Source: Candidatus Yanofskybacteria bacterium RIFCSPLOWO2_01_FULL_39_28
GTDB lineage: Bacteria; Patescibacteriota; Minisyncoccia; 2-02-FULL-40-12; GWA2-44-9
Reading direction: 5' to 3'
DNA: 64,000 bases
NCBI GenBank assembly: GCA_001794635.1
Contig: MGKE01000014.1
Coordinates: 112,984 to 176,983, forward strand
Below the pieces are notes generated by a model. The model worked only from the letters and a program-made list of their open reading frames with translations, searched no databases and had not been told where the DNA came from. This document shows positions 19,583 to 26,055 of this stretch, in pieces. Numbering within the stretch: position 1 is the first letter of the stretch; every line of letters starts with the position of its first letter. Position numbers and translations under genes: made by a program.

Positions 19583-19656
19583 GGGTGTGTAGCTCAGCTG
19601 GTTAGAGCATTTCACTTATAATGAAAAGGTCCCTGGTTCAAATCCAGGCACACCCA
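19583..19656 (+). tRNA. tRNA-Ile(UAU)
   Basis: Hand-folded cloverleaf with acceptor gggtgtg/cacaccc, anticodon stem tttca/tgaaa and loop cuUAUaa. No encoded CCA. Confidence 0.85.
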
Positions 19657-19660
19657 CATT

Positions 19661-19733
19661 GGGCGGTTAGCTCAGTTGGTAGAGCGCTTCCTTTACACGG
19701 AAGATGTCGAGGGTTCGAGTCCTTCACCGCCCA
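19661..19733 (+). tRNA. tRNA-Val(UAC)
   Basis: Acceptor gggcggt/accgccc, anticodon stem cttcc/ggaag, loop ttUACac. Confidence 0.9.
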
Positions 19734-19791
19734 CTTTGTTTTTAATAAATTAACCGAGTCCCGCAGTGCGCACTAGAAGTAACTTTTTATA

Positions 19792-20190
19792 ATGATCATT
19801 TTATTAGCTGATGCCCTAACAGCAATTCATACCATTCTAATCTTGTCTGTTTTTATCGGAATATTTCTGAGTATCAGAATAAAAAGGTTCCGACCCATTG
19901 AAGCTCTAGTTTTATTGGTCGCCATAGTTATTTGGTCTCTTTACGAAGAATGTCCACTTACTTCAGCAGAAGTCTACCTAAGAAATTTATCCGGACAAGT
20001 TACTTCATTAGGCGAAGTTGGTTTTATTGCTTATTATTTAAGCATTTGGTTTAATCTATCAATTTATCCAACAACAATAACTTTTCTTACCTATGTAATT
20101 GCTTTTATATTTCTCTTATTAAGCATAGCGTGGGAATTGCCCTATCTTAAGAGACTACGACAACAAATACATAGATCGGAAAAACCATGA
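19792..20190 (+). CDS. integral membrane protein, function unknown
   Basis: 132 aa with four hydrophobic segments. Confidence 0.5.
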   Translation: MIILLADALTAIHTILILSVFIGIFLSIRIKRFRPIEALVLLVAIVIWSLYEECPLTSAEVYLRNLSGQVTSLGEVGFIAYYLSIWFNLSIYPTTITFLTYVIAFIFLLLSIAWELPYLKRLRQQIHRSEKP

Positions 20191-20906
20191 AACCAAATCT
20201 TACTACTATCTACGAAGACTCAAATATTATCGTTATCAACAAACCGGCAGGATTGATTACTCATCAGAAAAACATTGACGACAAACAGCCAAGCGTTGTT
20301 GACTGGGTTATTCAAAATTATACCGAGCTGAAAGATATCGGCGAGCCTTTTATTGCTTCAGGTGCTGAAGTCACGCGAGCCGGCATTGTTCATCGCTTAG
20401 ACAAAGATACTTCCGGTCTAATGATAATCGCCAAAAATAATGAGACTTTTTTTTATTTCAAACACCTATTTCAAACACGAAAAATTAAGAAACATTATCT
20501 TGCTCTCGTTCACGGTCAACCTAAAAATATAACGGGTATAATTTCCTCCCCTCTTGGTCGTATTGGCATGAAAAGAACGACCAAAATAATTGGTAAAAAA
20601 ATGATAGATCAAAAAGAGGCCGAGACTGAATACAAAACAATTAAAAACTATGGGCACTTCGCCCTATTGGAACTGACTCCCAAAACAGGACGAACCCACC
20701 AGCTCCGAGTCCACCTTAACTCAATCGGTCACCCCATTGCCGGAGACCCAGTTTACGGATTCAAAAAACTGCCTCCACCGCCCGGACTTAATCGTCTTTT
20801 CCTTCATGCCTATAAACTAGAGTTTATTACTCCTGACGGCAGAGCTCTAACCCTTGAGACAGACCTGCCGGAGGATTTACAAAAAGTCATAAATAATATA
20901 GAATAG
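20187..20906 (+). CDS. RluA-family pseudouridine synthase
   Basis: 239 aa. HRLDKDTSGLMI catalytic motif and the later GRTHQLRVH. Confidence 0.85.
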   Translation: MKPNLTTIYEDSNIIVINKPAGLITHQKNIDDKQPSVVDWVIQNYTELKDIGEPFIASGAEVTRAGIVHRLDKDTSGLMIIAKNNETFFYFKHLFQTRKIKKHYLALVHGQPKNITGIISSPLGRIGMKRTTKIIGKKMIDQKEAETEYKTIKNYGHFALLELTPKTGRTHQLRVHLNSIGHPIAGDPVYGFKKLPPPPGLNRLFLHAYKLEFITPDGRALTLETDLPEDLQKVINNIE

Positions 20907-20912
20907 AGTGTC

Positions 20913-21050
20913 ATGAATCCCCACACTCAGAAAGCATATTTTCTGAAGTGGCGGGGTATAAAACAAGTAACACAGCGAGTATACGGCACGTTGTAAGTGG
21001 GACACAAGATCCCAAAACATGAAGCCAAATGCTTTCTGAATGTGGGGATG
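20913..21050 (+). promoter_or_regulatory. CCCCACACTCA hairpin element on the rplS start codon (copy 1)
   Basis: ATGAATccccacactcagaaagcat (20913-20937) pairs with atgctttctgaatggggg... precisely atgctttctgaatgtggggATGAAT (21029-21053). An upstream mini-ORF MNPHTQKAYFLKWRGIKQV starts at the first ATG. Confidence 0.7.
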
Positions 21051-21410
21051 AATAAACTAGACCTATTCAATTCAAAACACGCCATAGAAAGCAAGCTAAA
21101 AGACCTGCGAGTTGGTTGGTCCGTTAAGATTCACCAAAAGATTAAAGAAGGAGAGAAGACCAGAACCCAAGCTTTTGAAGGCATAATAATCAGCAAAAAA
21201 CACGGCAATGAAGCCGGTGGAACAATAACTGTCAGGAAAGTATTCGGTGGTTTTGGTGTTGAGAAAACCTTTCCGATTTATTTGCCTTCAATAGAAAAAG
21301 TTCAAATCCTCAAAAAATCAAAAGTTCGCCGAGCTAAACTCTATTATCTCCGCGATAAAACCTCTAGAGAAATCCGGAAAAAGATGAAACAGACAGTTAT
21401 TACTTCTTAG
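21048..21410 (+). CDS. rplS: 50S ribosomal protein L19
   Basis: Start set at ATG 21048 (MNKLDLFN). RTQAFEGIIISKKHGNEAGGTITVRK...VRRAKLYYLR matches L19. Confidence 0.92.
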   Translation: MNKLDLFNSKHAIESKLKDLRVGWSVKIHQKIKEGEKTRTQAFEGIIISKKHGNEAGGTITVRKVFGGFGVEKTFPIYLPSIEKVQILKKSKVRRAKLYYLRDKTSREIRKKMKQTVITS

Positions 21411-21439
21411 TTTTTCTCTGTTTGATATACTTAGAAAAT

Positions 21440-21524
21440 GCGGACGTGGTGGAACTGGTATACACGTGCGTTCGAGGGGCGCATGCCGCAAGGCTTGGGG
21501 GTTCAAATCCCCCCGTCCGCACCA
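21440..21524 (+). tRNA. tRNA-Leu (type II, long variable arm); anticodon loop ambiguous (GAG with C33, or CGA in an alternative fold)
   Basis: gcggacgtggtggaactggtatacac is a Leu-type acceptor and D-arm. A73 and an encoded CCA are present. Anticodon region tgcgt-tcgaggg-gcgca. Confidence 0.75.
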
Positions 21525-21604
21525 AAGTTTCTGAGCGCTGTGCGCTTCGAAGCTTTCCTGGCCTTCGTAGTCGAAGTTATCTCGACGAAGTAGGTAGCGA
21601 AGAA

Positions 21605-21677
21605 GCGCGCTTAGCTCAATTGGTAGAGCATCCCCTTGACGTGGGGAGGGTTGTAGGTTCAAGTCCTGCAGCGCGCA
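21605..21677 (+). tRNA. tRNA-Val(GAC)
   Basis: Acceptor gcgcgct/agcgcgc, anticodon stem tcccc/gggga, loop ttGACgt. Confidence 0.9.
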
Positions 21678-21679
21678 CT

Positions 21680-22036
21680 ATGGAAAAATCTAAAGAAATA
21701 GCAATAGAAACAAACCAGTATAAAAATAACCCTGAAGATTTTGTTGAGGAACAGGATGCCATAGAAGAATCTATTTCAACAATGCATAAACTGGTTTTTG
21801 GTAAACAAACTAAAGTTGAGATTAGACTCAACGCTTTAGGTGACAAAACTGCAATAGTAAGACATGCGGGTAAGATAATTTATTCAACAGATATACCTGA
21901 TGAGGTAGCCGGTTTTGAATTATTCTTGAAAAACCCTGAAGCCGCTATTGAAGAATATATTAAAAATGAAGGGCTTAAAAAAGCTTTGAAAACAATGTAT
22001 GACCCGATGATAGAAACAGGAGAAATAGATAAATAG
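21680..22036 (+). CDS. hypothetical protein
   Basis: 118 aa from ATG 21680 (MEKSKEIAIE). The tracked ORF 21422-22036 reads through two tRNA genes, so I trimmed it. Confidence 0.5.
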   Translation: MEKSKEIAIETNQYKNNPEDFVEEQDAIEESISTMHKLVFGKQTKVEIRLNALGDKTAIVRHAGKIIYSTDIPDEVAGFELFLKNPEAAIEEYIKNEGLKKALKTMYDPMIETGEIDK

Positions 22037-22072
22037 ATAAAATTAAAACTGATAGGATGTCCGATCAGAAAA

Positions 22073-22099
22073 CTAAAAACCCTAATATAGGGTTTTTAG
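22073..22099. terminator. bidirectional hairpin terminator
   Basis: ctaaaaaccc-taatata-gggtttttag lies between the convergent ORF 21680-22036 and tRNA-Phe. Confidence 0.7.
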
Positions 22100-22104
22100 T
22101 TTTC

Positions 22105-22402
22105 TGGTGCCGCGGGAGGGAGTTGAACCCCCGACGCCAGCCTCTTCCAAAGCTGAATTGGACTATATCATCACCCCCTTAGAATTTATATAAAGAGGGG
22201 CTGGGCGCTTATATAGGATTATCGTTGGGACTCACCTATTAGTCTCTACACCTGCCGGAAAATCAAAGCCCCTTCCGGATCGGCTCGGGATTGTTTCTGT
22301 TAAAGAAGTTTCCCCCGAATTCACCCAGTTTTTCTCAGAACTCATTACTAAGTTCGGCCCCAAAGAATTTAGGGCTGCGCTCTACCGCTGAGCTACCGCG
22401 GC
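22105..22402 (-). tRNA. tRNA-Phe(GAA) interrupted by a group I intron
   Basis: 5' exon gccgcggtagctcagcggtagagcgcagccct (22402-22371). 3' exon gaagaggctggcgtcgggggttcaactccctcccgcggcacca (22147-22105). Joined, they give the anticodon loop cuGAAga with A73. Confidence 0.8.
22148..22370 (-). ncRNA. group I intron (IC3-like, tRNA-type), ~223 nt, no internal ORF
   Basis: P1 pairs gcccu with ggggc, with the U.G pair at the 5' splice site. ucuuu next to the guide pairs with the 3' exon gaaga (P10). The terminal residue is G. ggtgaattcgggggaaac and aggtgtagagacta match my memory of the Azoarcus tRNA-Ile intron core (GGUGUAGAGACUA). Confidence 0.75.
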
Positions 22403-22605
22403 ATTAATCTATGCTTATTATATCAAAATCTGAAATATTTTCAATACTTATTCTATCTTCCCCGTTTAGAGGTAAGAAGTTATCGACATTAGCTTATCCA
22501 CAAAAACAAAAAATAATTAATACGTTGTGCGACTATTTAGTTGTACACACCCAGTTATTAACAAATTATATTGAAAAGTGAACTGCTGTGCTATACTTAT
22601 AGGTA

Positions 22606-23301
22606 ATGAGGTCCGATAAATTTAAGGCCTACAAATTACGTCTAGCTGGTCGGAGTTATAATGAAATAACTCGGCTTCTTAAGGTGCCCAAGAGTACCCT
22701 CTCTGGATGGTTCGCTGATTTAGAATTAACCGAAAAAGCAACAAAGAGACTTAAAGATCGGGTACATGTCGCCTCTCTTCGTGGCCTAATCGCAAGAAAT
22801 AAAAACCAAACAGCCCTAGCTGAAACAAGGTCAAGAGAGATGTATGACAGAGGGGAGAAGTTAATCAAAGATATTAGCAAAAGAGATTTATTAATTATCG
22901 GCACAGCTTTATATTGGGCAGAAGGATATAAAAGGCCGGTGGTTATCAGGGGTAAGACTAGAACATCTCACAGGGTATCCTTAACTAATTCAGACCCCGA
23001 CCTTATTTGCATATTCCTTAAGTTTTTAAGAGAGGTGTGTAAAGTTCCTAATGAAAAAATAACCATTTGGATTAGATATTTTGAACACCAAGATCCAACT
23101 TATCTGTTGAACTTTTGGCAAAAAAAGTGTAATATTCCATATAGTAATTTTAGAAATACATTACAGACCGTCAGTATTTCTAGTCAGCGAAAAAAATCCT
23201 ACAACTCTCTTTCATTTGGAGTAGCCCAAATATCTGTGAACAATACTAATTTATATCATGAGATAATGGGTATGATTTCTGGAGTTGCCAAAAATAAATA
23301 A
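22606..23301 (+). CDS. HTH plus LAGLIDADG-like homing-endonuclease-like protein (free-standing)
   Basis: 231 aa. N-terminal SYNEITRLLKVPKSTLSGW (HTH). LLIIGTALYWAEGYK resembles a single LAGLIDADG motif with an acidic residue. Confidence 0.4.
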   Translation: MRSDKFKAYKLRLAGRSYNEITRLLKVPKSTLSGWFADLELTEKATKRLKDRVHVASLRGLIARNKNQTALAETRSREMYDRGEKLIKDISKRDLLIIGTALYWAEGYKRPVVIRGKTRTSHRVSLTNSDPDLICIFLKFLREVCKVPNEKITIWIRYFEHQDPTYLLNFWQKKCNIPYSNFRNTLQTVSISSQRKKSYNSLSFGVAQISVNNTNLYHEIMGMISGVAKNK

Positions 23302-23303
23302 TT

Positions 23304-23377
23304 GCGGGTATCGTATAATGGCATTACGGCCGGTTGCCAATCGGTCGACAGGGGTTCGATTCCCCTTACCCGCTCCA
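23304..23377 (+). tRNA. tRNA-Gly(GCC)
   Basis: Acceptor gcgggta/tacccgc, loop ttGCCaa, encoded CCA. Confidence 0.88.
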
Positions 23378-25765: not shown

Positions 25766-25896
25766 AAATACTTGGTTCCAAATAGATTAACTTTTACTGA
25801 TATTATCATAATCAAAAATTTAAGGATTTGGAACCGCTAAGTTAGGGCTCGTTTACGAGCTTATTGAGCAATCTCACGGCTCGGAAACACATTTAG

Positions 25897-25969
25897 TCCG
25901 CCCACCAGGACTCGAACCTGGGACCGTTTGCTTAAGAGGCAACTGCTCTACCAGCTGAGCTATGGGCGG
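25897..25969 (-). tRNA. tRNA-Lys(CUU)
   Basis: ccgccca/tgggcgg acceptor (C1:G72), loop ctCTTaa, T-arm ccagg-ttcgagt-cctgg. Confidence 0.85.
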
Positions 25970-25983
25970 ATGTTTAATTTTTG

Positions 25984-26055
25984 TGTCCCTGGAGGGAATC
26001 GAACCCCCATCAACAGCTTCGAAGGCTGCTGCTTTATCCGTTAAGCTACAGGGAC
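25984..26055 (-). tRNA. tRNA-Arg(UCG)
   Basis: gtccctg/cagggac acceptor, anticodon stem gcagc/gctgt, loop ctTCGaa. Confidence 0.88.

Follow-up and report, generated by a model that had tools for sequence, protein, structure and literature searches.

The 64-kb window (the whole stretch of Ca. Yanofskybacteria DNA that was analysed) carries a tRNA-Phe(GAA) gene that a group I intron splits at the 33/34 site. This intron is almost certainly an ordinary member of the published Phe.2Ug class, which is found in tRNA-Phe(GAA) genes of the Patescibacteria/CPR. The features of the class were all found here, including a Phe(GAA) host after splicing, the 33/34 site, a U as the last base of the 5' exon (U-1), a G at the end of the intron (omega-G), and homology to the published members.

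The bacterial tRNA intron classes have been raised from 4 to 21, the seed alignment of that study includes Mba55.Phe.2Ug, and the classical tRNA-fMet intron is named fMet.2Ug there, the 2 marking the loop nucleotide (U33) that precedes it (Williams 2020, bioRxiv 10.1101/2020.01.27.920355). The 33/34 position was also described as a well-characterised site, and Table 1 of the same report includes the Doudnabacteria genome GCA_016699995.1 with an intron at 33/34 of tRNA-Phe(GAA) (Nakagawa et al. 2026, mSystems, PMC13011429). The original prediction had held that the known bacterial tRNA introns are located only after U34 or U36; however, the classical tRNA-fMet intron lies at 33/34 (Williams 2020, PMC13011429). 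It had also been expected that a tRNA-Phe host and insertion at 33/34 would be unusual, and this expectation is contradicted by the two published Phe introns, as well as by the survey of CPR genomes that had been proposed: among the matches listed, 71 of 120 were tRNA-Phe(GAA) introns inserted after U33. The Phe.2Ug class is already known, from publications of 2020 and 2026, and these counts show it to be common. As a discovery, the window intron matters little, because dozens of CPR species carry the same class.

The split gene and its splice junction

The features of the locus and of the intron are summarized in Table 1. When introns were allowed, ARAGORN reported a tRNA-Phe(gaa) with i(33,223), and the group I identity of the insert was supported by the Rfam model RF00028; the coordinates and the intron length of about 223 nt given in the original prediction were right to the base. 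The 5' exon provides the acceptor strand, the D arm and the 5' strand of the anticodon stem, and the 3' exon (22147-22105, minus strand) reads GAAGAGGCTGGCGTCGGGGGTTCAACTCCCTCCCGCGGCACCA (GAAGAGGCTG...CGCGGCACCA). The intron begins with AAAUUCUUUGGGGC and ends with the omega-G at 22148. The ligated exons were folded by ARAGORN into a canonical cloverleaf with the discriminator A73 present, which is the canonical tRNA-Phe that had been predicted.

Table 1. Coordinates of the split tRNA-Phe(GAA) gene, the structural elements of its intron, and the neighbouring features in the window.
Feature	Coordinates	Strand	Description and basis
Interrupted tRNA-Phe(GAA) gene	22105..22402	-	298 nt; mature tRNA 75 nt, CCA encoded; ARAGORN -i
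5' exon	22371..22402	-	32 nt, GCCGCGGTAGCTCAGCGGTAGAGCGCAGCCCT, 3'-terminal C32 U33
P1 5' strand	22375-22371	-	GCCCU, final 5 nt of the 5' exon; U.G pair invariant in 31/31 homologs
Group I intron	22148..22370	-	exactly 223 nt, no ORF; Rfam RF00028 and covariation in 31 homologs
Internal guide sequence	22357..22367	-	UUCUUUGGGGC; GGGGC forms P1 with the 5' exon, UUCUUU forms P10 with GAAGAG
P2 hairpin	22338..22355	-	7 bp, GUAA tetraloop; both-side changes at all 7 pairs across homologs
P3 5' strand	22322..22328	-	CUGGGUG; partner 22207-22201; 100% paired, 2 compensatory pairs
P4-P5-P6-P6a domain	22250..22318	-	P4 UCGGGG/UCCCGA; J4/5 GAAA
P7 5' strand	22240..22246	-	G-A-GACUA; partner 22165-22160; invariant in 31/31 homologs; Rfam alignment
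P7.1-type hairpin between P7 and P3'	22213..22239	-	27 nt: 5-bp stem AUAGG/CCUAU, conserved 17-nt loop UGAGUCCCAACGAUAAU
P3 3' strand	22201..22207	-	CGCCCAG; structure alignment of homologs
P8 hairpin	22172..22200	-	4/5 pairs compensatory, 86% paired across homologs; window copy has one C x U mismatch
P7 3' strand	22160..22165	-	UAGUCC; preceded by J8/7 (UG)AUGAUA; Rfam alignment and homologs
Intron tail	22151..22155	-	CAGCU; copies anticodon-stem 5' strand CAGCC; can pair with 3'-exon GGCUG 22142-22138
3' exon	22105..22147	-	43 nt; starts G34 A35 A36 G37 A38; CCA at 22107-22105
Promoter-like site	22417..22444	-	TTGAAA-16 nt-(TG)TATAAT, its end 15 nt before the 5' end of the tRNA; consensus match alone
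Perfect 19-bp inverted repeat	22066..22106	.	starts within the encoded CCA of tRNA-Phe
HTH ORF	22606-23301	+	231 aa; NCBI hypothetical protein A3B86_04410

The predicted ligated junction joins ...GCAGCCCU to GAAGAGGCUG... (...CCCU to GAAGA...). Because the first base of the intron is A, this junction cannot slide to an equivalent position and is unambiguous. Moreover, the intronless tRNA-Phe genes at related loci have the anticodon loop CUGAAGA, which is identical to the loop obtained by joining the window exons, G37 included. Alternative splice junctions were rejected: ARAGORN calls some tRNA at many offsets, and only the 33/34 junction combines U-1 and omega-G with the anticodon of the intronless alleles and a loop of 7 nt that includes U33. 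The 34/35 "G/G" calls of ARAGORN in 32 homologs were also set aside, as they reflect the ambiguous junction of introns whose first base is G; every one of them comes out at 33/34, with a U-1 and an omega-G.

Neither ARAGORN at default settings nor the tRNA model of Rfam found a tRNA-Phe in the window or anything at 22105-22402; they revealed nine other tRNAs, none of them Phe. This agrees with the earlier claim that the split gene is the sole tRNA-Phe gene in the window. Since default finders miss the split gene, such genomes appear to be without tRNA-Phe, and tRNA detection that allows for introns is needed in pipelines that annotate CPR genomes.

The gene is located in a dense tRNA cluster (19583-23377, and 25896-26055) with small genes between the tRNAs. 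The order is Ile(UAU), Val(UAC), Leu(GAG), Val(GAC), the split Phe(GAA) and Gly(GCC), followed by Lys(CUU) and Arg(UCG). The window also encodes an FtsH protein, and an identical sequence was found on contig MGIY01000012.1 of the Candidatus Yanofskybacteria MAG GCA_001793985.1. The promoter-like site upstream agrees with the consensus at 11 of 12 positions, and also has the extended -10 TG. At the other end, the inverted repeat has a minimum free energy of -27 kcal/mol (z = -8.0; 0/200 shuffles equally stable), and is found 30 nt past the stop codon of a convergent ORF ending at 22036. The repeat is likely to act as a terminator, shared by the two genes and possibly bidirectional, or in 3' processing.

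Core structure and homologs of the intron

The search with RF00028, which had been suggested as a check, matched positions 22380..22138 (minus strand) with 65.4 bits and E = 2e-14 for the whole window, and the match covered every model position (1-253 of 253); the gathering score of the model is 50. As predicted, P1 is composed of GCCCU/GGGGC with the U33.G wobble at the splice site. The predicted P10 guide, pairing UCUUU with the first five 3'-exon bases GAAGA, could be extended to 6 pairs between the intron UUCUUU and the 3'-exon GAAGAG; the guide UUCUUU has an alternative pairing with the intron AAA as an extension of P1. P7 forms part of the guanosine-binding helix. P6a has a stem of 7 bp, in which 7/7 pairs are compensatory, and its loop contains an invariant GGG. 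In the alignment with the Rfam consensus, the P7.1-type hairpin shows up as an insertion of 30 nt; its stem is 100% paired across homologs, with compensatory changes at 4/5 pairs. There is an invariant CCC in the P7.1 loop (22213-22239), and the invariant GGG of the P6a loop lies at 22269-22271 (intron positions 100-102). These two segments could form a loop-loop tertiary contact, which covariation cannot probe because both are invariant.

Homologs were searched in one genome per species, using a motif that spans P7 and the next hairpin, AGAGACTANNNNGTGAGN{0,1}CCNAACRATAAT. The motif loci listed come from at least 120 species genomes, nearly all of them MAGs of the CPR/Patescibacteria. The 71 tRNA-Phe(GAA) introns include 65 loci that were normalised automatically, and 6 loci that were mis-set by ARAGORN and assigned by inspection. 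The U-1 and the omega-G are present in 65/65 of the auto-normalised homologs, and the intron-terminal G of the original prediction is thus shared by the window and all of these loci. The nearest relatives among the matches listed have about 80% identity over the whole precursor.

The proposed structure, comprising the tRNA arms, P1-P8 and the P3/P7 pseudoknot, was evaluated on an alignment of 31 members of the window's subfamily. In these homologs, 95.9% of the proposed-pair cells form, whereas only 34-48% form when the partners are slid by 1-3 columns. Changes on both sides were observed at 41 pairs, and 0/500 shuffles reached the observed covariation score. Compensatory changes abound in helices P2, P5, P6a, P7.1 and P8; in 31/31 homologs, P7 and the U.G pair at the splice site are invariant. 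P10 is 97% paired across the homologs, and the subfamilies shift in step (GAAGA/UCUUY vs GAAAAUC/GRUUUUC).

Two further groups of loci carry the motif. Fourteen MAGs with the CPR-type motif, most of them with it within tRNA-Phe, are labelled as Gammaproteobacteria, Bdellovibrionales, Flavobacterium or Pseudomonadota (loci L016, L022, L025, L028, L057, L064, L072, L075, L085, L089, L097, L115, L131 and L133). Most likely, the taxonomic labels are wrong or CPR contigs were mis-binned in these cases, and the motif does not truly occur beyond the CPR. Group I introns with the same P7-P7.1 motif were also found in 13 viral contigs of IMG/VR (L001-L013), none of them in a tRNA gene; some of these contigs contain 3-4 introns in about 3 kb, for example at 911-3711 of L004 and 10252-11902 of L007. 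This suggests that the lineage of the window intron has phage relatives. Since the viral introns are not in tRNA genes, they are uninformative on the tRNA-Phe locus.

The interrupted gene might instead be a decaying or non-functional copy, with an intact tRNA-Phe elsewhere in the genome and splicing dispensable. Such a gene could lie outside the 64 kb of the genome that the view covers; however, all elements of the catalytic core are intact and invariant across the homologs, the exons give a flawless tRNA, and a strong promoter-like site, judged by its consensus match, is present upstream. Moreover, in the entries of the supplementary table that were considered, there is one tRNA-Phe per Patescibacteria genome, including the Doudnabacteria genome with the interrupted Phe gene (PMC13011429). 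A decaying copy is the least probable of the readings considered here, and the gene is regarded as functional. Splicing would be essential if this is the single tRNA-Phe gene of the genome, of which the 64-kb window was covered. All phenylalanine decoding would then depend on a ribozyme; such a dependence is neat, and it has already been noted for reduced genomes.

Predicted splicing, the intron tail and the neighbouring HTH ORF

The split gene would be transcribed from its own promoter into a precursor of about 300 nt. The guide sequence would pair with the last five bases of the 5' exon (tRNA positions 29-33) to form P1, with the U33.G wobble at the cleavage site, and P1 would thereby occupy part of the 5' strand of the anticodon stem. 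Because P1 uses positions 29-33, three pairs of the anticodon stem would be taken over. The freed 3' strand of the stem might be held by the look-alike segment at the 3' terminus of the intron, which would replace the missing P9. A free guanosine bound in P7 would attack after U33, the P10 pairing (UUCUUU/GAAGAG) and the terminal G would align the 3' splice site, and exon joining would give the CUGAAGA anticodon loop. The intact conserved core, and the in-vitro splicing of related Patescibacteria introns, suggest that the window intron may be self-splicing. No in-vitro splicing test of a tRNA-Phe intron of the Phe.2Ug class was found in the literature.

An internal P9 is missing from the window intron, in which P7 is followed by only 12 nt. 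The tail CAGCU sits before the UUG-3' end, and the helix between the tail and the 3' exon is 90% paired across the 31 homologs. In 66 short-tail relatives, the tail pairs better with the 3' exon of the same locus than with foreign 3' exons (on average 4.44 vs 3.56 of 5 pairs). The stem differs from the majority in 31 short-tail relatives, and 11/31 of these are perfectly compensated, compared with 5% in foreign combinations; for example, AUGCC occurs with AUGCU, GACGC with GACGC, and CGCGC with CACGC. In several lineages with divergent stems the tail is uncompensated. Since the compensation is partial (11/31, with several lineages lacking it), the tail pairing is plausible rather than proven, and it is plausible from these sequence comparisons that the tail CAGCU stands in for the missing P9.

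The ORF near the tRNA-Phe gene encodes a weak N-terminal HTH and an uncharacterised α/β domain, and over 600 relatives of it are present in public data. The tRNA-Gly gene starts 3 nt after its stop codon, and this gap is 6-16 nt in close relatives. In a survey that started from the protein, 80 metagenome loci were fetched, and 68 of them had enough flank; the tRNA-Phe(GAA) gene adjoins the ORF in 68/68, with the intron in 59 and without it in 9. In the genome sample, an ORF homolog was present at 36 of the 71 tRNA-Phe intron loci among the matches listed. The gap between the ORF and the tRNA was 11-204 nt in all but one of 33 arrangements (32 loci and the window). The ORF was downstream on the same strand in 18 of these, upstream on the same strand in 7, and upstream and divergent in 7; in the remaining 1 it was on the opposite strand, 2.9 kb downstream.

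An association of the ORF family with the intron itself was rejected: since 9/68 informative ORF loci adjoin an intronless tRNA-Phe, the linkage is to the tRNA-Phe gene and not strictly to the intron. Intronless tRNA-Phe(GAA) genes beside homologs of the HTH ORF were seen at loci L139, L156, L158, L176, L204, L212 and L213. The ORF protein of L139 is 86% identical to that of the window; default megablast of this intronless locus against the window gave no match. As intronless alleles are located beside ORF homologs, the presence of the intron varies among fairly close relatives, by gain or loss.

A LAGLIDADG homing endonuclease had been suspected from "LIIGTALYWAEGYK" and the predicted topology of the HTH ORF protein, and this identity was unsupported by the profile and fold searches. 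Comparison with Pfam, NCBIfam, PHROGs and PADLOC revealed no endonuclease match and only the weak N-terminal HTH, and the profile and sequence search of the PDB gave no match. Foldseek searches of the PDB and BFVD with AlphaFold models, both full-length (pLDDT 86.7) and domain-only (84.2), also found no endonuclease; the best matches were generic α/β domains with E above 0.01 and TM of about 0.35-0.39.

Proteins assist many group I introns in vivo, and the window intron might likewise need a protein helper in the cell, for which the product of the neighbouring HTH ORF is one candidate. The adjacency to tRNA-Phe(GAA) in every informative locus, 59 of them with the intron, and the lack of an internal P9 are consistent with such a role. 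However, where the flanks of a tRNA-Phe intron locus are good, the ORF is absent in about half of the cases, and 9 ORF copies adjoin intronless tRNA-Phe genes; the sole recognised domain is a DNA-type HTH, and the searches revealed neither a maturase fold nor one that binds RNA; and related introns splice protein-free in vitro (PMC13011429). A requirement for this helper is thus very improbable, and an intron of the Phe.2Ug class that would splice by its own core is preferred.

It is also conceivable, if rather unlikely, that the HTH ORF is an independent element, mobile or DNA-targeting, which lands at tRNA-Phe and moves with the intron (collaborative homing), or is a dedicated regulator or processing factor of tRNA-Phe; and, separately, that the stem mimic is a possibly undescribed presentation of the 3' splice site without P9. 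To our knowledge, neither the intron-tail mimic nor the linkage of the HTH ORF to tRNA-Phe has been described earlier.

Subgroup and relationships with published introns

The original prediction had also assigned the intron to the IC3 introns of the Azoarcus/Anabaena type. The segments recognised there belong to the universal group I core, and the P7.1-type hairpin of the window intron is absent from the IC3 introns compared. IC3 introns carry an internal P9, and their P3' strand comes right after P7; whereas in the window intron a 27-nt hairpin intervenes, and only 12 nt separate P7 from the 3' splice site. The IC3-like label is therefore probably wrong, as judged from these sequence features. 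The extra helix between P7 and P3' (P7.1/P7.2), which marks subgroup IA, is represented by the hairpin at 22239-22213. In global alignments to the window intron, the published Phe intron was the best, the tRNA-Asn intron was the second (169), and the IC3 introns were the lowest (114-122). The window intron is likely a member of subgroup IA, by the hairpin and the alignment rather than by subgroup covariance models. Nearly all tRNA introns of the Patescibacteria were classified as IA, including 25/28 introns at 35/36, and none was assigned to subgroup IC; moreover, a Patescibacteria tRNA-Asn intron self-splices in vitro (PMC13011429).

Comparison with the IC3 introns showed that they share the universal core with the window intron, including J3/4-P4 AAUUCGGGG, J6/7-P7 GGUGUAGAGACU and J8/7-P7 GAUAUAGUCC. 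The cyanobacterial tRNA-fMet intron, which is also IC3, even has the same 33/34 site. However, in the IC3 introns of Anabaena tRNA-Leu (34/35) and Acidobacteriota tRNA-Ile2, the P3' strand follows 1-3 nt after P7, and there is no P7.1 hairpin.

The IA introns of the Patescibacteria come from the same phylum as the window intron, and have a similar core and a P2 capped by GUAA. The IA tRNA-Asn intron also contains the same P7-P7.1 motif (AGAGACUA-NNNN-GUGAGCCCAACAAUAAU); whereas the tRNA-Asp intron is without the long P7.1 loop motif of these two introns. The IA introns are inserted at 35/36 in other host tRNAs and have a normal internal P9; whereas the window intron ends 12 nt after P7.

The closest similarity is to the Phe.2Ug class, which has the same host tRNA, anticodon, 33/34 site, U-1 and omega-G. 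The core motifs, the P7.1 hairpin, and the short 3' tail mimicking the anticodon stem are all as in the window intron. For example, Mba55.Phe.2Ug has the same P1 (GCCCU/GGGGC) and core, and the Phe intron of the Doudnabacteria genome GCA_016699995.1 shows 83% identity to the window intron over 195 aligned positions. The published introns are from other organisms than the window (Ca. Yanofskybacteria), and differ in length (211 vs 223 nt in the window) and in the peripheral loops of P5, P6a and P8.
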